Assembly (NCBI GenBank): GCA_964641455.1 | Contig: CAZXLH010000002.1 | Location: 50,774-114,773, forward strand | DNA length: 64,000 bases | Source of the DNA: an uncultured Eubacteriales bacterium | GTDB lineage: Bacteria; Bacillota; Sulfobacillia; Fermentithermobacillales; Fermentithermobacillaceae | Direction: 5' to 3' | Shown: positions 9,836-47,360 of the stretch, piece by piece | How the letters are laid out: every line of letters starts with the position of its first letter | How positions within the stretch are numbered: position 1 is the first letter of the stretch | Translations under genes and position numbers: made by a program | Notes under the pieces: model-generated | What the model saw: only the letters and a program-made list of their open reading frames with translations | Told to the model about the DNA's origin: nothing | Database searches by the model: none

Positions 9836-10291
9836 TTGATGTTTTGGATTCCGTTTCTGGGAGTTGTGGTTCTGGACCAGTTGAGTAAGTGGTATATTAG
9901 ATCGAATTTTGCTCTCGGCCAGTCTCTGCCCATTATCGGTGAGTGGCTGCAGATTGTGTATAGAGAAAACGCAGGTGCCGCTTTTGGTATCCTGGCAGGC
10001 GCAAGATGGTTGTTTATTGTTACAAGCGCTATTAGTGTAGTGCTGGCCGTTTTGCTTCACCCGAAACTATATTCATTCGGGCGGCCTATGGTAATGGCGC
10101 TTGGGCTTGTTGCCGGAGGTGCTTTGGGAAACCTTATTGATAGGATACATCAAACCACAGTAACGGATTTTATATATCTAAAGTATTTTCCTGCAGTGTT
10201 TAACGTAGCCGATGCTGCAATAGTCATTGGAGCTTTCATGATTGGAATTATGTTGATTATTTTACTCCCAAAGGATGAGCCGGTGTTGTGA
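9836..10291 (+). CDS. lspA: Lipoprotein signal peptidase II.
   Basis: The translation contains the motifs NAGAAFG and FNVADAAI and has four TM helices. Confidence 0.85.
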   Translation: MMFWIPFLGVVVLDQLSKWYIRSNFALGQSLPIIGEWLQIVYRENAGAAFGILAGARWLFIVTSAISVVLAVLLHPKLYSFGRPMVMALGLVAGGALGNLIDRIHQTTVTDFIYLKYFPAVFNVADAAIVIGAFMIGIMLIILLPKDEPVL

Positions 10292-11307
10292 AAGACAGTA
10301 ATAAATCTCGTTTGCAAATAAAGGAAACTGTAACACGTTTGGTCGTACGAAATGAAAACTCAAACGACAGGTTAGATGTTTTTGCTGCTGCACAACTTGA
10401 ATCCGGTATTTCTCGATCACAAATCCAGGCCTTCATTAAGCAGGGAAGAGTTATGTTGAACGGCATGGTTGTGACTAAACCTTCGATTAGAGTGAAAACC
10501 AATGATGTTGTCGAGGTAGCAATTCCTCATCCGGAGAAATGGGATTTAGAAGCCGAGGATATTTCCTTAGACATAATATACGAAAACAATAATGTTCTTG
10601 TAGTAAATAAACCAAGGGGAATGGTGGTTCATCCGGCAGCAGGCCATAAACGAGGAACCTTAGTCAACGCAATATTAAGTTATTGTCCGGAAATCGCCGG
10701 AGTAGGGGACAACATGCGCCCGGGAATAGTTCACCGGTTAGACAAGGATACTACCGGCGTGCTGGTGGTTGCCAAAAACGAAACGACACTTAGGCAACTT
10801 CAAACTCAGATGAAGAACAGGAAGGCAAAACGGGAATATGTTGTTTTGTGTAAGGGCCGTATAGGGAAAGATCAAGGAATTGTTGATGCACCTATTGGCC
10901 GGCATCCTGTAGACCGCAAACGGATGGCTGTAATCACGACGGAGCCAGGTATTTCTCCTCGAACCAGAGCCAGAGAAGCAGTAACACAGTGGCAAGTGGT
11001 TACGAGGTTTGATTCTGCCTATACACTCATAATTGCCAGGCTGCTCACGGGTAGAACCCACCAGATTCGCGTTCATATGTCTTACATAGGCCATCCTGTA
11101 GCCGGAGATCGTGTGTATGGTAGAACAGGAAGAAAACTAAAACTTTCAGGCCAGGCGCTTCATGCATTTAGGCTTGGATTGTTTCTAGGCGAGAATTACG
11201 ATGAGTACCAGGAATTTACAGCGCCGTTACCTGCAGATTTTGCTCAGGTACTGCTTAGTCTAAAAAACAAACATAGGGAGGAGCTTCCTTCATGGTTAAT
11301 GATCTAG
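10288..11307 (+). CDS. rluD: RluA-family 23S rRNA pseudouridine synthase, RluD-like, with an N-terminal S4 domain.
   Basis: The translation contains HRLDKDTTGVLVVAKN. Its GTGA start overlaps the lspA stop. Confidence 0.8.
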   Translation: MKDSNKSRLQIKETVTRLVVRNENSNDRLDVFAAAQLESGISRSQIQAFIKQGRVMLNGMVVTKPSIRVKTNDVVEVAIPHPEKWDLEAEDISLDIIYENNNVLVVNKPRGMVVHPAAGHKRGTLVNAILSYCPEIAGVGDNMRPGIVHRLDKDTTGVLVVAKNETTLRQLQTQMKNRKAKREYVVLCKGRIGKDQGIVDAPIGRHPVDRKRMAVITTEPGISPRTRAREAVTQWQVVTRFDSAYTLIIARLLTGRTHQIRVHMSYIGHPVAGDRVYGRTGRKLKLSGQALHAFRLGLFLGENYDEYQEFTAPLPADFAQVLLSLKNKHREELPSWLMI

Positions 11308-11963
11308 ATCGAAAACATATGGCAGAAAGGGTAGCAAAGATATTGATAGATATAGAGGCGGTAGGAGCCAGGCCTGATGAGCCCTTTACATTGACTTCCG
11401 GAACCAAGAGCCCGGTGTACATAGACTGCCGCAGATTGATTTCGTTTGTGCCTGAGAGGGAGGAGGCTGTACGGTTTTTGCAGCAGCTGGTTCAAGATTC
11501 GGTAGATGGCCCAATAGGCGCAATTGCAGGTGGCGAGACTGCAGGGATTCCGTACGCTGCTTTTCTTAGCTGGCAGATGGGGCTTCCCATGCTTTATGTA
11601 CGAAAAAAACCCAAAGGGTTTGGGAAAAACGCCATGGTCGAAGGCGATGTTATTGATGGGTCACGTGTGGTTCTTATTGAAGACCTGATTTTTGACGGTG
11701 GGAGCAAAGTGAATTTCATTGAAGGCCTCAGGAAGGCTGGGTTGGCAGTAAACCACGTGTTTACCATTGCTTCTTATGCACTTTATGACGAGTACGAGAA
11801 AACCCTTGGTTCAATTGATGCAAAGGTGTCATGGCTTACTGACTGGCCTACAATTGTTGATGTGGCAGAAGACACAGGGTATTTTAGCAAAGACGAAGCC
11901 GCCAAAGTAAGAGATTTCCTGGCAGATCCACACAGATGGTCCAGGGCACGGGGTGGAAAATAA
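11292..11963 (+). CDS. pyrE: Orotate phosphoribosyltransferase.
   Basis: An AGGGAGGAG RBS precedes the start, and the PRTase fold motif VVLIEDLIFDGGS is present. Confidence 0.8.
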   Translation: MVNDLDRKHMAERVAKILIDIEAVGARPDEPFTLTSGTKSPVYIDCRRLISFVPEREEAVRFLQQLVQDSVDGPIGAIAGGETAGIPYAAFLSWQMGLPMLYVRKKPKGFGKNAMVEGDVIDGSRVVLIEDLIFDGGSKVNFIEGLRKAGLAVNHVFTIASYALYDEYEKTLGSIDAKVSWLTDWPTIVDVAEDTGYFSKDEAAKVRDFLADPHRWSRARGGK

Positions 11964-12137
11964 TAAGGTCTTGGGTAAGCAGCCAATGAATTCTGTCCAG
12001 TGAATTCTCTAGTGAACTTAACTGAGGATTAGTTTTGATTATTGCAATAAACCCGAAACGCGAAATCCCAATGAATTGGCTATGAGAACTGGATATAAGA
12101 AAGATGGAAGGCTTTGTAAAACAGCAGTCCCGCTGAA

Positions 12138-12277
12138 AGTTGTATGAATTTCAAGCAGCTGTATAGAAAAACTACAGCTTTTGGGAAAGTTGCTCAATTT
12201 CCATACAGGTTTCTAAAAAGCTGTATAGATTCTGTACAGGTTCCGCCAGGAGTTGTATGAATTTCAAGCAGCTGTAT
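12138..12277. repeat. Two copies of a 27-bp direct repeat, AGTTGTATGAATTTCAAGCAGCTGTAT, at 12138-12164 and 12251-12277.
   Basis: The two copies are exact matches read directly from the sequence. About ten further bases upstream of each copy are weakly similar. Confidence 0.9.
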
Positions 12278-12292
12278 GGATTTTATACAGGC
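12157..12292. promoter_or_regulatory. Three operator-like palindromes of the form AGCTGTA-N9-TACAG(C/G)(T/C), at 12157-12179, 12219-12241 and 12270-12292.
   Basis: The inverted repeats were read directly from the sequence. Their centres are 61 and 51 bp apart, and they lie upstream of a lipoprotein gene. Confidence 0.45.
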
Positions 12293-12386
12293 CCCTCCGT
12301 TATTGGATGTTTGGGAACTTGGTTCGAGCAAAGGAACCTTTTGCTCCTGTTTGGAGTCTAAAAGGCTAGTTCGGAGGTGGTTACTA

Positions 12387-12839
12387 GTGAAAAAACGGTC
12401 AATGCTGTACCTATCGATATGCGTTATGGCCTTGGCGCTTATAGTATCAGGTTGTACACCGGCCCAAGAGAAAGAACCTATAGCCATGGAGCCGTCAATT
12501 GAAGAGGAGCTCCAGCAAGTCCATCCAGATGAAGATGTGAACTATACATTCAACACGCGATTTTCTCTGAATAATGCATTGGATAGGGTAGGCCAGCTCA
12601 AGAAAATGTCTATGCCCCAAGGCGAGCAATCAATGGCTTTTACCAATTCCGTAGGTGCTATTGAAGGTACTTTGATGAAACAGGATTATGAAATAAAGAA
12701 ACTTGATTTTGAACTTGCCAAGGTACTTTTCAGAGACGGTGAAATAACTCAAGAACAGTTAGACCAAAAAGAAGCTGCTTATAATGAAACTCTAAACGCT
12801 TTCAAGGCCTTCTGGGACTCGTTCGGGATTTCAGATTGA
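12387..12839 (+). CDS. Putative lipoprotein of unknown function.
   Basis: A GGAGGTGG RBS precedes a GTG start. The signal peptide ends in the lipobox LIVSGC. Confidence 0.6.
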   Translation: MKKRSMLYLSICVMALALIVSGCTPAQEKEPIAMEPSIEEELQQVHPDEDVNYTFNTRFSLNNALDRVGQLKKMSMPQGEQSMAFTNSVGAIEGTLMKQDYEIKKLDFELAKVLFRDGEITQEQLDQKEAAYNETLNAFKAFWDSFGISD

Positions 12840-12899
12840 CCATGAAACCGTAAATATGGAGCAATTGTAACTTTACTTTAGATCAAATGGGCCGGAATC

Positions 12900-12947
12900 G
12901 CCGGGAACAAGCATCGTAATCCAGGGGTTCCGGCTCAATAATTTTAT
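12900..12947 (+). terminator. Candidate intrinsic terminator after the lipoprotein gene.
   Basis: A stem (GCCGGGAAC / GGTTCCGGC) containing one bulge is followed by TCAATAATTTTAT. Confidence 0.35.
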
Positions 12948-12952
12948 AGATC

Positions 12953-13958
<1,006 letters not shown>

Positions 13959-14150
13959 CCTTATTTGATATTCTATCATTCGGAGCTTGCTCATAAATAA
14001 CCAGTCTGCAATAACGAGCAAATATCCTGCAATTTACTTCGGCATTTTCAACTGATGCATGCCCCAAACACTTTTCCAGAGAGGGCGACCCTGTGTTGTA
14101 TTGATTTCCCGGTGTACTGATTTTCCAAATCATAGGAGGTGTTCTCCAAG

Positions 14151-15767
14151 TTGAGAAAAAGACTGGTAATGGTCCTTACGGCATTGTTTCTTACCATGAG
14201 TCTTTTGGCCGGCTGTGGTCCTAAAGCTCCCGAAGAACCGGAAGGGCCTACAGTAGTTAAGGGAGGATTTTTCGAGGATTACATGACAGGCGATCCAAAG
14301 GGCCTCGACGTACAGGAAAGCACTATGTTGGTCAACTATGAACTGGCACGGCTCATGTTTAGCACGTTGGTTAGGTACAAAGGCGCCACAACTGAACTTG
14401 AGCCTGAACTTTTGGCTGAAATGCCTGAAGTGTCTCCAGATGGTTTAACCTATACCTTTGAACTTAAGCAAGGCGTAATCTTTCATGATGGTGAAACTGA
14501 GCTTAAGTCAGATGATGTAAAATTCACTATTGAACGTATGCTTTCCCCAGAAGGAAAAGGGCTTTCTGCATGGCTATTCGATCCTATAAAAGGTGCCCAG
14601 GATATAATAGACGGCAAAAGTACTTCTCTTGAAGGATTTAAGAAAATAGATGATTACAAATTCGAAATCACACTAGAGGAGCCTTATGCCCCGTTCTTGC
14701 AGAATCTTGCGGTGCCGTCGGCTTCTGTTTACTCTGAAAGCATCGTGACCGCTGCAGGCGAAGATTTTGGGATTAACCCAATGGGCACAGGCCCCTTTAA
14801 ATTAAAGAAGTATACTCCTCAGGACGAAATTGTATTGGAGAAGCATACAGAATATTTTGAAGAAGGCCTCCCCTATCTTGATGGCGTAAGGTACAGGATT
14901 TTGGCTTCGACTACCGCGATTATGGAGTTTGAGAACGAGACCCTTGACATAGTTGCAGTCGGTGTTGAAGATCACAACCGGTTTGTAGAATCCGACCTTT
15001 ACACATTGCTTGAAGCTAACCCCCTCAACACATATTACTTTCTTATAAACCAGTCTAATGAAGATTGGGCTGACTTAAGGGTTCGTAAAGCTTTGGCGCT
15101 TAGCTTTAATAAGGAGGAGTTTGTTGAGTCGTTTTATCCCGGCGGCCGGGCTGAGGTGGCTACATCCTTTGTTACCCCTGGAATACCCGGGGCGTTTGAA
15201 AAAGGTGAAGGGCCTGCATATGATTACGATTTGGAAGCGGCCAAGGCTCTTATCGAAGAAGTGGTAACAGAAACCGGCAAACCTGTCGTTGTTGAGGCCT
15301 GGCAGCGGGGCGGCGGAGATACTATTAGCGATGCTAACCTTGCATTCCAGGCCATGGCTAAGGAAGCCGGTATTGATCTTAAGATAATTCCGGTTGAAGC
15401 AGGTGTTTTCAATTCGTCAAGACGGCAGGGTGATATTCCGGCAAACTATGGCAACTGGTGGGCAGACATACCTGACGCAGACAACTACATCGGCACTTTC
15501 TTTGCACGTGGCAACCAAATGTCATCAGGATATAACAATCCGGAAATTCAAGACAAAATCGAACAAGCCAAAATAGAAGTTGACCCTGATAAGCGTGCTG
15601 AGCTTTATCAGGAAATTGAGACTGTGCTGATTGGAGATGAAGTAGCTGTAATTCCCCTGTTCCATACCAAACAGTTTCGGTTTGTACATCCAAATGTTAA
15701 GGGTGTTATTATGCACCCCACGGGAATTGTGATGATTAGCACAGCTTACAAGGAAGTACCGGAATAA
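14151..15767 (+). CDS. oppA: Oligopeptide/dipeptide ABC transporter substrate-binding lipoprotein (SBP family 5).
   Basis: The signal peptide ends LLAGC and the protein is about 540 aa. An AGGAGG RBS at 14134 is followed by a TTG at 14151. The ORF track instead starts at a GTG at 14139, which overlaps the RBS. Confidence 0.8.
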   Translation: MRKRLVMVLTALFLTMSLLAGCGPKAPEEPEGPTVVKGGFFEDYMTGDPKGLDVQESTMLVNYELARLMFSTLVRYKGATTELEPELLAEMPEVSPDGLTYTFELKQGVIFHDGETELKSDDVKFTIERMLSPEGKGLSAWLFDPIKGAQDIIDGKSTSLEGFKKIDDYKFEITLEEPYAPFLQNLAVPSASVYSESIVTAAGEDFGINPMGTGPFKLKKYTPQDEIVLEKHTEYFEEGLPYLDGVRYRILASTTAIMEFENETLDIVAVGVEDHNRFVESDLYTLLEANPLNTYYFLINQSNEDWADLRVRKALALSFNKEEFVESFYPGGRAEVATSFVTPGIPGAFEKGEGPAYDYDLEAAKALIEEVVTETGKPVVVEAWQRGGGDTISDANLAFQAMAKEAGIDLKIIPVEAGVFNSSRRQGDIPANYGNWWADIPDADNYIGTFFARGNQMSSGYNNPEIQDKIEQAKIEVDPDKRAELYQEIETVLIGDEVAVIPLFHTKQFRFVHPNVKGVIMHPTGIVMISTAYKEVPE

Positions 15768-15836
15768 TTAAGTATAGACAGTCAAAGCGAAGGTGCGCCG
15801 CAAAGCGCACCTTCCCGCTACACGGGGTGATATTAT

Positions 15837-16754
15837 ATGGTCAACTACATTGTTCGCCGACTCCTTATTGCCATTCCAGTCTTAATCGGGATAACACTTA
15901 TTACATTTATTTTGCTCAACGTTGTTCCTGGCGATCCCGTGGAAATCATGCTGAAACGGTCAGATGACGCTACCATTGAAAAAGTCCGCGAGCAGCTCGG
16001 ATTAAACGATCCGTTAGCCGTTCAATACGGAAGGTTTGTGCGCAATGCTTGTAAGGGCGATCTTGGCAAATCGTTTATTACCGGATTACCGGTATCCGGT
16101 ATGATCAAAACTGCGTTTCCAAACACCATAAGGCTTGCGCTCACTGCGTTTGTGGTTGCAAGTATCATAGGGCTCATAGTTGGGATTGTATCGGCGGTCA
16201 AACAATATTCATTCCTGGATCACTTTCTTATGATTGGCGCGCTCTTAGGCATTAGCGCCCCTGCTTTTTGGGTAGCTACCATTGCCCAACTGATATTTGG
16301 GCTTAAACTAAAGCTCTTGCCTATTTCAGGGTATTCAAGCCCTAAAGATATGATTTTGCCTGCCTTGGTACTGGGAACCAGATATGCCGCTTCAATAGCA
16401 AGATATACCCGAACTACTTTGCTTGATGTCATAAGGCAAGATTACATTCGCACAGCCAGGGCAAAAGGCTTGGCAGAGAAAACAGTGGTATTTGGCCATG
16501 CCCTGAAGAATGCCTTGATACCGGTTGTAACTATTATGGGAATGCAGATAGGTGGGCTCTTAACCGGAGCACTCATGGTCGAAACTATCTTTGCCATCCC
16601 GGGAGTCGGAAGATTGTCGGTTTGGGCACTGAATAACCGGGACTTTCCTCTGGTTCAAGGTACGGTTCTTTTTAACGCATGTATATTTGTATTCGTAAAC
16701 ATTCTGGTAGATGTCATGTACGGCTATCTTGACCCGAGAATAAGACTGCGCTAG
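15837..16754 (+). CDS. oppB: ABC transporter permease, OppB/DppB type.
   Basis: The translation has the N-terminus MVNYIVRRLL and six TM helices, and a GGGGTGA RBS precedes the start. Confidence 0.85.
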   Translation: MVNYIVRRLLIAIPVLIGITLITFILLNVVPGDPVEIMLKRSDDATIEKVREQLGLNDPLAVQYGRFVRNACKGDLGKSFITGLPVSGMIKTAFPNTIRLALTAFVVASIIGLIVGIVSAVKQYSFLDHFLMIGALLGISAPAFWVATIAQLIFGLKLKLLPISGYSSPKDMILPALVLGTRYAASIARYTRTTLLDVIRQDYIRTARAKGLAEKTVVFGHALKNALIPVVTIMGMQIGGLLTGALMVETIFAIPGVGRLSVWALNNRDFPLVQGTVLFNACIFVFVNILVDVMYGYLDPRIRLR

Positions 16755-16765
16755 GAGGTGGGAAC

Positions 16766-17701
16766 GTGGCAAGAAGAACGGAAAACAAAAAGAAAGAAGA
16801 GGTTCTGCAGACATCAGAAGCAAAACAAGAAAGTTCCCATTCCTTGTGGAGCGATTCATGGAAGCGCCTAAAGAGGAATCGTCCGGCCATAGCAGGGCTT
16901 GTATTCATCATATTGCTGACTTTGTCAGCAATATTTGCCCCGTGGTTGGCACCTGCAGATCCTTTGAAGCAGGATCTGCCTAACCGCCTGAAACTTCCAG
17001 GAGCTCCTTCGAACATTACCCGGAATGGTACCTATATTTTAGGGTCTGATACCCTCGGCAGGGACATTCTTTCCAGGCTATTATACGGCGCAAGAATATC
17101 TTTGACTGTTGGGATAGTTACGCAGTTTCTAATAACGGTAATCGGAGTTGCACTTGGTGCTTTGGCAGGATATTACGGGGGTTGGATTGACATGCTTGTG
17201 ATGCGCACAGGAGACATTCTGTTTGCATTTCCCGACCTCCTTTTCTACATCGGGATAATGTTTGCCCTTGGCCCTGGTATCTACAATATGTTTCTTGCAT
17301 TGTCGATAATCGGATGGGCCGGGCGAGCCAGGCTTGTACGTGGCCAGTTTCTTTCGCTTCGTGAATCTGAGTATGTTGAGGCAGCTCGTGCACAAGGCTT
17401 ATCCGATGCCAGGATCATTTTCCACCATATCCTACCTAATTCCTTGGGGCCAATAATTGTATCCATCACCATGGGGATTCCCGGTTCCATGCTCTCAGAG
17501 GCTTCTCTCTCCTACTTGGGATTGGGTATTCTGCCTCCTACTCCCAGCTGGGGCAACATGATTGGTGATGCCAGGCCTTATTTGCGTGCCAATCCGTGGT
17601 TCTCTGTATGGCCAGGCATTGCAATAGTTCTAACTGTCCTGTCATTTAACCTATTGGGCGATGGGCTGCGGGATGCCCTTGATCCCAGGCTGAAAAGATG
17701 A
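16766..17701 (+). CDS. oppC: ABC transporter permease, OppC/DppC type.
   Basis: An AGGAGGTG RBS precedes a GTG start, and the permease is polytopic. Confidence 0.8.
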   Translation: MARRTENKKKEEVLQTSEAKQESSHSLWSDSWKRLKRNRPAIAGLVFIILLTLSAIFAPWLAPADPLKQDLPNRLKLPGAPSNITRNGTYILGSDTLGRDILSRLLYGARISLTVGIVTQFLITVIGVALGALAGYYGGWIDMLVMRTGDILFAFPDLLFYIGIMFALGPGIYNMFLALSIIGWAGRARLVRGQFLSLRESEYVEAARAQGLSDARIIFHHILPNSLGPIIVSITMGIPGSMLSEASLSYLGLGILPPTPSWGNMIGDARPYLRANPWFSVWPGIAIVLTVLSFNLLGDGLRDALDPRLKR

Positions 17702-17831
17702 TTAAGACAAATAACCGTGGATACCTTTTAAATCATAGGATACTTGTAGAATCAAGGGTTAAGTTAAAGAATCTCAAGCAAACTGCAAACGAGCAGTTCT
17801 TATTGACCGAGATTTGAAGGGAGAGCTTGAT

Positions 17832-19034
17832 TTGAACAATTGCCTCAGATATGGAAGCAAATATGTCAAATTGGCTACGGTTTGCAAAGGGTTACTTACT
17901 TTTGCGATCGCTTTGGGTGTTATCTGTATTCTGGGATGTCAACCTGAACCGACTCCTCCTGATGCAGAGATACTAACAAGAGCAAACAAAATCATAGAAA
18001 CAACAATACAAGAGGCAAAGATTTGCGATGAGGAAGCCATTTTTACTATTACGGCTTCGGTAGAAGACGGCAGAGTTATCTTAGCCGGAGAGACAACTGA
18101 GCTGGAAATCAAGGAAACTATTGTACTGGAGATTTTGGATATTCCCGGAGTAAAGGTAATTGACGAAGTAACAATGTTTCCTGCTGCAGAACTGGGCGAT
18201 AAGATATGGGCAGTTGTCAAAGAGCCTGTAATCAATCTAGGCGATGCTCCGGGCCAATCTGAAGGCAAGAACACAGTAACTCAGGCCAGAATGGGCGATA
18301 TCGTACTTGTTCTGCTTAAGAAGGATGATTGGTACCTGGTTCAGATGGAAGATAAGTATCTTGGCTGGGCTGATCCTAATCACATTACGCTTTATGATTT
18401 AACATCCCTTAATGATTATTGGTCTGGGCAAGTTGCTCTGATTGAAACCAAAATGGCAGAGGCATTGGACGAACCTGAGGGCCAGCAATTATTTAGCCGG
18501 TGGCTGGTGCAGGGAACGGTGCTCCCTCTTGCTTCCGTTGATCCTGAGTGGTCTCAACTTAAACTTCCCGATGGCAACATCTGCTTTGTCAGAACTTCCG
18601 GTATCAAGAGTTTTTCTAACAGGGATAGTGTGTTTGCCGAAAAAAAGAGTGCCGAGGACGTAATTGCAACGGCGAAGCAGTATATAGGCCTTCCCTATCT
18701 GTGGGGCGGTTGCACTTCATACGGGTTTGACTGCTCAGGTTTTACTCAGTTTTGCATGAAAATAAATGGTTATCACATTAGGCGAGACGCTGATATCCAA
18801 TATGAACAAGGTGAACCGGTGAGAGCAATAGTCGACTTGAAACCAGGCGACCTGGTGTTTTTTGAAACATATAGGCCCGGCCCTTCACATGTAGGGATTT
18901 ACATAGGCGATTATCGTTACATTCATGCAGGGAGCAGTGCCGGAGTTGCCATTAATAGTTTCTACCCTTCCCACTCTGACTACTCAGCGTCTTTAGCCGG
19001 CAAATTCTTAGAAGGACGTCGAATCATCAAATAA
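17832..19034 (+). CDS. SH3b-domain NlpC/P60 (C40) peptidase lipoprotein, YkfC-like gamma-D-Glu-L-diamino-acid endopeptidase.
   Basis: The C-terminal C40 domain carries the motifs [14 protein letters not shown] and H-x-G. The lipobox-like sequence is ICILGC. The start was taken at the TTG after a GAAGGGAGAG RBS; the ORF track starts at 17814. Confidence 0.7.
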
Positions 19035-19059
19035 GGCAACCGGCAGAGGTGAGGTCATT

Positions 19060-20076
19060 ATGAATAATTTGTCAGCAGGTGAACCATTGTTGCAAGTATG
19101 CGATCTTACTACCAAGTTTTTCACCGACGACGGTGTTGTAACAGCCGTGGACAGAGTATCCTTCAATATTGGGGAAGGCGAGACTTTGGGGATGGTTGGT
19201 GAATCAGGATGTGGTAAGTCAGTTACATCATTGTCTATCATGCGGCTTATTCCTTCGCCTCCTGGAAAAATAACATCTGGGGAAGTTACTTTCGAAGGTG
19301 AGGACTTGCTTGCAAAATCGGAAGCAGAGATGCGTTCAGTGCGAGGAAACAAGATCTCGATGATATTTCAAGAGCCAATGACATCACTGAATCCTGTTTA
19401 CACTATAGGAACTCAAATATCTGAAACTATACTTTTACATCAAGACGTATCCAAGGAGGATGCCAAGCACAAAACCATTCAAATGCTCAAATTGGTTGGC
19501 ATTCCAGAGCCTGAGAGGCGGTATGTAGAATATCCACACCAATTGTCAGGTGGTATGAGGCAGCGTGTGATGATAGCCATGGCTCTGTCCTGTAACCCAA
19601 AACTACTAGTGGCAGACGAACCTACAACTGCCCTTGACGTTACGATTCAGGCTCAGATACTTGATTTGATTAGGCGTCTTAGGGCTGAAACAGGAATGAG
19701 TGTGCTTCTTATAACCCATGATCTTGGAGTAATCGCTGAGATGGCACACCGGGTTGTAGTCATGTATGCCGGCCAGATATTTGAAGAAGCTTCTTGTGAA
19801 GCTCTTTTTGAAACGCCGTGTCATCCGTATACTACTGCGCTTTTGAGGTCAATTCCCCGCATGGATGCAGACAGGGGCCGCCTGCATGTTATCGAAGGTA
19901 TGGTTCCGAATCTGCTTGAATTACCTGACGGTTGTAGATTTCATCCCAGGTGTAGTGAGGCTGAAGAGATTTGCAGAGAAGCCGTTCCTGAACTACTCAC
20001 TTTAGAGGGCAACCATAGGGTTCGGTGCTTTAAGAGAGGCTCCGGACCTGAGGAGGTGAGCCAATGGGCACAATAG
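19060..20076 (+). CDS. oppD: Oligopeptide ABC transporter ATP-binding protein.
   Basis: The translation has the Walker A motif GESGCGKS, the signature LSGGMRQR, and an OppD-type C-terminal domain. A GAGGTGAGG RBS precedes the start. Confidence 0.85.
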
Positions 20077-21092
20077 CAGAGATTACGGATGTAAATGTTG
20101 AACAACCTATGCTTGATCCCAACCACCTTATGGAAGTAAACGGGTTGGTCAAATGGTTTCCGATTAGAGGTGGAGTGTTTCAGAAAACCATTGGCCACGT
20201 TAAAGCAGTAGATGACGTGAGTTTTTTTATCAGACATGGAGAGACTCTTGGGCTTGTGGGTGAAAGCGGGTGTGGAAAAACCACTACCGCCAGGACCATG
20301 CTCAGGTTAATTGAACCGACTGAAGGGGAAGTGGTTTTTGATGGTGTAAACTTACTGAACTTAGGAAAAGACGAGTTAAGTAAGATTCGCCCAAAAATGC
20401 AAGTGATCTTCCAAGACCCTTACGGTTCGCTCAACCCTCGGTTTACAGTCGGTGAAATAATAGGAGAAGCGCTGGAGTTTCATGGGATGGCCAGAGGGAA
20501 AGAACTAAATGACAGAGTGTCCCACCTTTTGGAAATGGTAGGGCTTTCTCCGTATCATGTTCAACGGTATCCCCACGAATTTTCCGGCGGGCAACGCCAG
20601 AGGATAGGCATAGCCAGAGCTATTGCTACTGACCCCAAACTGATAGTGTGTGACGAACCTGTTTCCGCTCTTGATGTATCGATACAAAGCCAGATACTGA
20701 ATCTGTTGGAAGACCTCCAGGAGCAATTTGGGGTGTCTTATCTTTTTATAGCTCATGGATTGCATGTAGTTAAGCACATATCTGATCGTGTAGGCGTGAT
20801 GTATCTTGGGAAGATAATTGAAGTCGCTGAAAGCAATAATATCTATGAAAATCCTTTACACCCTTATACCAGGGCACTGATTTCGGCTATACCCATCCCA
20901 AACCCAAAAGCCAAGCGGCATCGTATCATTCTTGAAGGTGATGTTCCTAGCCCTGTAAATCCGCCTTCAGGATGCGGGTTTCGGACTCGGTGCCGGTTTG
21001 CGGCCAAGATTTGCGAGAATGAAGAGCCTGTTTTAGGCGAAGTGGCTACAGGCCATTTCGTAGCATGCCATAATTTTGATCGGTTATTATGA
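20064..21092 (+). CDS. oppF: Oligopeptide ABC transporter ATP-binding protein.
   Basis: The translation has the Walker A motif GESGCGKT and the signature FSGGQRQR. Its start overlaps the end of oppD. Confidence 0.85.
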
Positions 21093-22106: not shown

Positions 22107-22271
22107 CCTATGTCCTTGAATTACTTTTGGTTACTTTGCCGGCATGTGTATGGCCAATTTATATCCTTGTTAGCCGGCCTTCTATGTTTACCTCCGCAAT
22201 CTTGAGGCGGGCGATGAAAACTACCAAACTGACGTTTGCTTTTCAAGTGAATTGATGGTACACTCTTTCTG

Positions 22272-47306: not shown

Positions 47307-47360
47307 GTATAACATCAGCAAGAACAAGGAGCAATCACATATTACACAAATGTTCGCCTA

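Follow-up and report, generated by a model that had tools for sequence, protein, structure and literature searches.

In the 64-kb stretch of DNA analysed here (the window), the 423-nt spacer between two plus-strand genes, a pyrE-like gene and a lipoprotein gene, carries an array of six 19-nt palindrome-like modules (within 12127–12300). The array is absent from the corresponding spacers of all relatives but the closest one, and a homologous unit with the same order of modules is found at a non-orthologous locus in the MAG of another organism. We interpret the array, with about even confidence, as a modular element of palindromic repeats comparable to REP/BIME or BOX sequences, present at low copy number and copied en bloc.

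Organization of the array

The array and its surroundings comprise the following features, the L046 array being the homologous one described further below:

11292–11963, plus strand: phosphoribosyltransferase gene (pyrE-like), upstream neighbour
12127–12239, plus strand: 113-nt higher-order unit of spacer, s1, s2, spacer, s3, spacer and s4 (blastn and alignment against the L046 array)
12138–12164, plus strand: copy 1 of the 27-nt exact repeat, covering s1 and the start of s2
12140–12158, plus strand: module s1 (A type), TTGTATGAATTTCAAGCAG, left half good, right half degenerate (22.9 bits; three mismatches to the consensus palindrome)
12159–12177, plus strand: module s2 (B type), CTGTATAGAAAAACTACAG, the sole site with full AGCTGTA/TACAGCT arms (palindrome scan, matrix)
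12190–12208, plus strand: module s3, TTGCTCAATTTCCATACAG, of which the right half alone is intact; reads as an inverted A-like module (13.9 bits on the plus strand, 12.4 bits on the minus strand)
12221–12239, plus strand: module s4 (D-like), CTGTATAGATTCTGTACAG (palindrome scan, matrix)
12251–12277, plus strand: copy 2 of the 27-nt exact repeat, covering s5 and the start of s6
12253–12271, plus strand: module s5, exactly equal to s1, TTGTATGAATTTCAAGCAG (repeat search, matrix)
12272–12290, plus strand: module s6 (D type), CTGTATGGATTTTATACAG, the best palindrome (26.4 bits)
12333–12361, plus strand: promoter-like GGAAC-N18-GTC, outside the array (alignment of seven orthologous upstream regions)
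12387–12839, plus strand: lipoprotein gene, 150 aa, GTG start, GGAGGTG ribosome-binding site, lipobox VSGC, no Pfam family

The modules occupy positions 12140–12290 and follow each other at start-to-start distances of 19, 31, 31, 32 and 19 nt, leaving gaps of either 0 or 12–13 nt that are filled by the spacers CTTTTGGGAAAG, GTTTCTAAAAAG and GTTCCGCCAGGAG. Their consensus is the 19-nt palindrome-like sequence CTGTATGAA-T-TTCATACAG. The boundary of the array is sharp, and the rest of the intergenic region is free of module-like sequence. An initial annotation of this DNA had described three AGCTGTA-N9-TACAGCT palindromes. Three palindromes do exist, but the full 7-nt arms are found only at the first of them; the second and third end in TACAGG, which reduces their complementary arms to the 5-nt CTGTA/TACAG. 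The pattern CTGTA-N9-TACAG occurs three times in the window (12159, 12221 and 12272), each time within the array, while about 0.03 occurrences are expected by chance and none of 100 shuffles reached three. Beyond these palindromes the array contains three degenerate modules in register with them, s1, s3 and s5. A position matrix built from the modules of all three arrays (window, L014 and L046) gave the six window sites scores of 14–26 bits. When the whole window was scanned with this matrix nothing else rose above noise: a single 11-bit match was obtained at 19912, compared to 0–6 such matches per shuffle.

The exact 27-bp direct repeat reported earlier, AGTTGTATGAATTTCAAGCAGCTGTAT, is present in two copies at 12138–12164 and 12251–12277, 113 nt apart from start to start, and at 85% identity the homology extends to 41 nt (12127–12167 versus 12240–12280). 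The window array has thus undergone a recent internal duplication. Tandem Repeats Finder called the 114-nt period of the L046 array and no array in the window, because the window units have diverged too far. The sequence following s6, GCCCCTCCG, resembles an L046 spacer, GCCCCGCCG. Short direct repeats noted just upstream are also real (CCAATGAATT-type, at 11983, 11997 and 12068); they lie outside the array and score negatively against the module matrix, and we therefore rejected them as decayed modules. Two further readings of the array were discarded. A CRISPR array does not fit, since the spacers measure 0–13 nt and are themselves repeated and the whole 114-nt unit repeats. A coding function was dismissed, since the ORFs that cross the array on the minus strand overlap the starts of genuine genes and 113 nt, the length of the period, is not divisible by three.

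Genomic neighbourhood and lipoprotein promoter

The array is surrounded by the pyrE-like, rluD, lspA, lipoprotein and opp genes, and the scanned part of the window (about 3–49 kb) encodes housekeeping functions, e.g. mutS, mutL, recA, rny, miaA and hflX. No regulator, recombinase or transposase gene was found near the array within this part. The only DNA-binding proteins nearby are LexA, encoded 10 kb away, and a DksA/TraR zinc-finger protein. The lipoprotein is predicted with confidence to fold into a helical hairpin (pLDDT 86.8); comparison of the model with the PDB yielded no significant match and hence no assignable function. Its family is small, with members seen only in uncultured Bacillota.

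Just upstream of the lipoprotein ribosome-binding site all orthologues share the element GGAAC-N18-GTC, whether or not an array is present, and from its sequence we take it as a putative ECF-type promoter. The array stops 42 nt short of this element, leaving it untouched. Judged from the alignment, the array is not needed for GGAAC-N18-GTC and is not part of the conserved promoter of the lipoprotein gene. Directly after GTC, the window and L014 lack 5 nt (AAATA-like) that the other orthologues have.

Several other observations were made in this region. A non-coding stretch of about 65 nt (12918–12986) begins about 80 nt after the lipoprotein stop codon and is 87–95% identical in relatives whose lipoprotein is only 67–80% identical. 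It contains TTTACATAATGTATATTATAGGACG, which includes a near-palindrome TACAT-A-ATGTA, and has no match in Rfam. Being far better conserved than the array, this stretch may, going by its conservation, be the real regulatory or RNA element of the neighbourhood. It lies in a segment of 1.3 kb without convincing ORF (12840–14138) between the lipoprotein gene and oppA; in relatives the gap between the lipoprotein and the NlpC/P60 gene amounts to 0.3–1.2 kb. In the window the NlpC/P60 peptidase gene (17814–19034) is located inside an opp-type peptide ABC transporter operon (14139–21092) with the order oppA, B, C, NlpC/P60, D, F, and relatives show the order lipoprotein, NlpC/P60, LysM, lexA without opp genes. 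An ENA contig of the same strain (L001, 7904–9577) has a single 557-aa product in place of rluD and the pyrE-like gene. The window counterpart consists of two overlapping ORFs, 10288–11307 and 11292–11963, and the fusion probably reflects a frameshift or differing gene calls in an assembly of 3x coverage.

The array in orthologous spacers

We compared the contigs of eight members of the lipoprotein family besides the window's own protein. Contigs of the same strain do not differ from the window. Relatives whose contigs extend far enough retain the order lspA, rluD, pyrE, lipoprotein, with a pyrE–lipoprotein spacer of about 120 to 600 nt. No module was detected in this spacer in any relative with a lipoprotein of 57–80% identity. 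The only relative with an array is L014/L015 (lipoprotein 90% identical), where it is in register with that of the window. Its module content differs: the s3 position is a perfect palindrome, the s4 position is degenerate, and about 100 nt of unrelated AT-rich sequence are added between array and promoter region. In comparison to L018, the window array is accompanied by about 60 nt of unique sequence (12080–12139). The initial annotation took a regulon-wide distribution of the motif as pointing to a dedicated regulator and named conservation in orthologous intergenic regions as a further check. No further site was found in the 64-kb window or in about 100 kb of relatives, and the array is missing from orthologous spacers outside the closest relative, L014.

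Several independent assemblies have contigs that terminate within the array or at its edge (L002, L003, L004, L014/L015, L046 and L068). Those of L002 and L003 stop at the identical base, even though no exact repeat inside the array is longer than 27 nt. These breaks could result from tandem repetition, strain variation or low coverage (about 3x for L001) rather than from dispersed copies.

A homologous unit at a non-orthologous locus

A species-representative genome collection was scanned for two CTGTAT-N8-TACAG sites 12–42 nt apart, which gave 34 loci. One of them, L046 (DUTL01000288.1), belongs to a Candidatus Fermentithermobacillaceae MAG and is the one locus found in that MAG. The array begins 5 nt downstream of a DUF523 gene (2-thiouracil desulfurase family), counted from its stop codon, and runs to the contig end. 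It comprises a 114-nt unit repeated in tandem at least 2.1 times, with 96% identity between the copies. Each unit consists of module A (CTGTATGATTTTCGAGCTG), module B (CTGTATGAAAAAACTACAG), a spacer, module C (CTGTATGATTTTCAGTCCG), a spacer, module D (CTGTATGAATTCCATACAG) and the spacer GCCCCGCCGTAGG. Order and spacing of the modules equal those of s1, s2, s3 and s4 in the window. By blastn the L046 unit matches window positions 12129–12240 with 70.8% identity over 113 nt (E about 1e-7). Counting on the alignment ourselves, we obtained identities of 79–89% for modules A, B and D and of about 45–69% for the spacers; for s2 and the L046 B module 17 of 19 positions agree (counted by eye). The 31–32-nt spacing is kept in both genomes.

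The L046 locus is not orthologous to that of the window. In relatives with a DUF523 protein of 73–75% identity no array is present, and a convergent tRNA-Leu(cag) comes after the gene; a Logan contig of the same species breaks 33 nt past the DUF523 stop codon, at the start of the array. Both arrays, that of the window and that of L046, are located past a gene 3' end and have the same orientation relative to this gene. A 415,192-nt NCBI contig, GCA_053529315.1, carries a lipoprotein fragment of 80% identity. A contig of equal length, which we take to be this one, holds a DUF523 homologue with 73% identity to the L046 protein. On this basis the window organism and L046 fall into one clade, and the window organism presumably belongs to the Candidatus Fermentithermobacillaceae. 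Since homology at non-orthologous sites covers the whole unit including module order and spacers, the unit appears to have been copied as a block. Operator sites that evolved independently would share only a binding consensus, which favours block copying over them. The suggestion of a past duplication or insertion made in the initial annotation is thereby borne out: the array is a lineage-specific block missing in the spacers of relatives, it shows internal duplication, and a homologous unit exists at another locus.

The pattern was also sought in other collections. In JGI metagenomes the A–B junction pattern had no match and the D-module pattern two chance matches without arrays. Four scans of viral contigs gave no match for the A–B junction and B-module patterns; single palindromes were seen inside phage genes, and none was related to the window array. 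The same scans contained phage non-coding arrays of a different motif, CTGTACA-N5-TGTACAG, which are unrelated to the window array. A literature search with the motif formula and the module sequences returned nothing relevant apart from a mention of the LysR-type TGT-N11-ACA.

Comparison with known binding sites

The spacer (11964–12386) was scanned for published consensus sequences with set mismatch limits. No match was obtained for TnrA/GlnR, Rex, CodY, CIRCE, cre, WalR, Fur, PadR, CRP or TyrR, and the LexA boxes CTGT-N8-ACAG and CGAAC-N4-GTTCG (up to two mismatches) are absent, in agreement with the earlier view that the motif does not conform to LexA, TnrA, Rex or CodY sites. The E. coli-type SOS box CTGT-N8-ACAG shares the arms CTGTAT/ATACAG with the array, whose centre is however three nt longer. 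The sequences CAAACTGACGTTTG upstream of lexA (22225–22238) and CGAACATTTGTGTA upstream of recA (47343–47356), neither of which is a CTGTA-N9-TACAG site, likely serve this lineage as LexA boxes and would represent a variant form of the Gram-positive CGAAC-N4-GTTCG. As lexA of the window genome is preceded by CAAAC-N4-GTTTG, close to the Gram-positive type, LexA appears to use this box here.

Two known types of array come close to that of the window. NtrC/ZraR-type activator sites of Desulfovibrionaceae have the form CTGTAT-N7-ATACAG, lie 31–32 nt apart and sometimes abut a degenerate 19-mer, so that consensus and geometry are nearly those of the window. They are situated 70–80 nt upstream of a perfect TGGCAC-N5-TTGCT and beside the activator gene, both of which are missing at the window array. 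The best sigma-54 -24/-12 match (TGGCAC-N5-TTGCW) in the spacer covers 6 of 12 positions, and none with 11 or more was found anywhere in the 64 kb, compared to 11–12 of 12 in the sigma-54 promoters of the Desulfovibrionaceae analogues. Among gut Desulfovibrionaceae MAGs, L038 and L056 carry arrays upstream of sigma-54 promoters of ZraP-like (PF13801) genes, which encode small secreted envelope proteins; the L038 array adjoins a sigma-54 response regulator and a histidine kinase. The L048 array is located directly upstream of an outer-membrane efflux gene and downstream of a weaker -24/-12 match.

The second type consists of three or four CTGTA-N9-TACAG sites in a row that directly precede operons encoding an HTH_3 protein and then HipA (Yersinia, Paraburkholderia, Iodobacter). 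Such arrays upstream of hipB-hipA-like operons were seen at L032–L036, L043, L044, L047, L049 and L051 in Yersinia, Paraburkholderia, Trinickia, Caballeronia and Iodobacter. Pfam confirms HTH_3 and HipA for L032 and L034, and the other loci examined were assigned by ORF similarity or by conserved array sequence alone; the Trinickia and Caballeronia loci resemble those of Yersinia, Paraburkholderia and Iodobacter judging by their ORFs. From their sequence and position these 27-nt-spaced arrays are probably HipB operators, with a consensus unlike the E. coli TATCC-N8-GGATA. They are always found next to their own regulator, whereas the window array has neither hipBA nor an Xre gene nearby, differs in spacing and has non-homologous flanks. 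The hipBA and sigma-54 arrays of other phyla are analogues and not homologues of the window array. In Macrococcus/Macrococcoides (L052, L061, L063 and L064) we noticed long arrays of 61-nt period with the unit hairpin GCGGCTGTA-N9-TACAGCCGC.

Comparison with intergenic repeat families

Enterobacterial REP/BIME sequences and Pseudomonas REPINs are imperfect palindromic units in intergenic DNA. They are found in both orientations and joined by short linkers, often after the 3' ends of genes and in tens to hundreds of copies per genome. The window array resembles them in being an intergenic, non-coding cluster of modular palindromes whose content varies between close relatives. It differs in its units, AT-rich 19-mers instead of GC-rich units of about 35 nt, in its single locus per genome so far, and in that no RAYT is known for it. 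BOX elements of Streptococcus pneumoniae are composed of boxA, boxB repeated n times and boxC, with defined terminal modules and about 100 copies per genome. Here the likeness lies in modules that are tandemly repeated, lost or rearranged between copies, in the Gram-positive host, in the intergenic location and in strong predicted hairpins, while no sequence similarity to BOX was found.

The array thus displays imperfect palindromic units, modular clusters, characteristic linkers and a place in intergenic DNA, along with homologous copies at non-orthologous loci, although at two loci only and in different genomes. There is one array in the 64-kb window and one locus in the L046 MAG, i.e. two loci in two or three genomes, and the high copy number that is a hallmark of REP, BIME and BOX families may not hold for it. 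No RAYT/IS200-like transposase was found among the window genes scanned, which cover about 3–49 kb. Neither a target-site duplication nor defined element ends were recognized at the array. Considered as a MITE, it has near-inverted ends (TTGTAT... and ...ATACAG), and relatives provide empty sites; a duplication could not be seen, and the flanking sequences have diverged too much for the junctions to be placed. By analogy, the 31–32-nt phasing (three turns) would count against a repeat element, being just what cooperative protein-binding arrays show.

The assignment to the REP/BIME or BOX kind is based on the absence from orthologous spacers, the rearranged modules of L014, the tandem expansion in L046, the location at gene 3' ends and the contig ends. 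Four modules and spacers of 12–13 nt make up a higher-order unit of 113–114 nt. From these comparisons we infer the following mode of spread and of possible protein binding. In a few Candidatus Fermentithermobacillaceae-like genomes the unit would have entered variable intergenic spacers by block copying or have expanded inside them, and local duplication, module loss and module decay would have shaped the array later. The module sequence is presumably maintained through recognition by a dimeric DNA-binding protein or a mobilising enzyme. Neighbouring genes would be affected secondarily, by hairpins in read-through transcripts or by a protein bound upstream of the promoter.

Alternative explanations

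A working multi-operator array remains the foremost competitor, a possibility that we hold only tentatively. A dimeric helix-turn-helix regulator would bind the 19-nt palindromes cooperatively, three turns apart, and either repress or activate the lipoprotein gene or block read-through from pyrE, the L046 copy belonging to the same small regulon. Palindromes far above chance, a 31–32-nt spacing common to both genomes and modules better conserved than spacers all agree with this, as does the regulatory role of a near-identical consensus and geometry at hipBA operons and at sigma-54 promoters of ZraP-like genes. It is because this architecture serves at least two unrelated HTH families elsewhere that we retain the operator explanation at this level. 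The defining companions of the known operator and activator arrays are, however, absent at the window array, and the multi-operator regulatory region put forward in the initial annotation gained no support from the tests proposed for it: there is no adjoining regulator gene, no sigma-54 promoter and no other site in 64 kb, and the promoter-like element of the lipoprotein gene stays in place in orthologous spacers from which the array is missing. The L046 array, moreover, follows a gene 3' end where relatives have a convergent tRNA and thus does not lie in a promoter region, and homologous spacers and module order are unexpected for operators evolving independently. An intermediate explanation, which we regard as unlikely, combines binding with mobility: the 113-nt unit would be a low-copy, block-mobile cassette of phased 19-nt palindromes for a putative dimeric DNA-binding protein, moved between unrelated intergenic sites in this uncultured Bacillota class and imposing control, a roadblock or an insulator on the adjoining gene. 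The gene so controlled here would be that of an envelope lipoprotein with an ECF-like promoter.

An element acting at the RNA level seems improbable. The array would be transcribed with pyrE or as a leader, and a long hairpin would stabilise, process or terminate the transcript. The plus strand indeed folds into one long hairpin of -55.4 kcal/mol (z = -4.8; none of 200 shuffles was as stable) compared to z = -2.1 for the minus strand, the L046 array reaches z = -5.9 (plus) and -4.6 (minus), and the orientation relative to the upstream gene is the same in both genomes. Yet any series of palindromes folds well, so that such z-scores are expected. G-T and A-C mismatches in the module stems (10 versus 5) give no clear strand signal, and the centre of the dyad differs between the window and L046. 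A scan of 12140–12290 found no intrinsic terminator, with neither a U-tract nor a GC-rich stem; a combined scan for sigma-70 promoters and terminators returned nothing inside the array, and Rfam 15 gave no match in the window at the gathering score nor at E ≤ 1 in 11900–14200. We consider it quite improbable that the array is the relic edge of a mobile element or plasmid, with iterons, integrase arm sites or transposase-binding sites left after loss of the element. The left half CTGTATGA is indeed repeated directly in each of the four L046 modules, as in iterons or end-binding sites; the L046 array occupies the place of a tRNA-Leu gene found in relatives, and such genes are classic targets of integration; and the window array comes with the unique sequence at 12080–12139. 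Against this, no rep, integrase or transposase gene or pseudogene is found near the array, blastn of the array revealed no similarity to plasmid or phage records, the scans of viral contigs likewise showed none, the window contains no tRNA, and a transposon end would not be tandemly repeated at 96% identity.

Implications

CTGTA-N9-TACAG arrays serve HipB-type antitoxins and ZraR-type sigma-54 activators in other phyla, which is a caution against naming a regulator from the palindrome alone. If the operator explanation holds, the array would be a handle for finding the regulator of an envelope lipoprotein. If instead the array is a modular repeat element, little would be learned about regulation of the lipoprotein gene. 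Recognizing it would then be of use in annotation, where the array would not be mistaken for an operator, and in assembly, as contigs break at it. Use as a strain marker is possible, since module content differs between close relatives. The array would then also represent the first modular family of intergenic palindromic repeats to be described from the uncultured class Candidatus Fermentithermobacillia.
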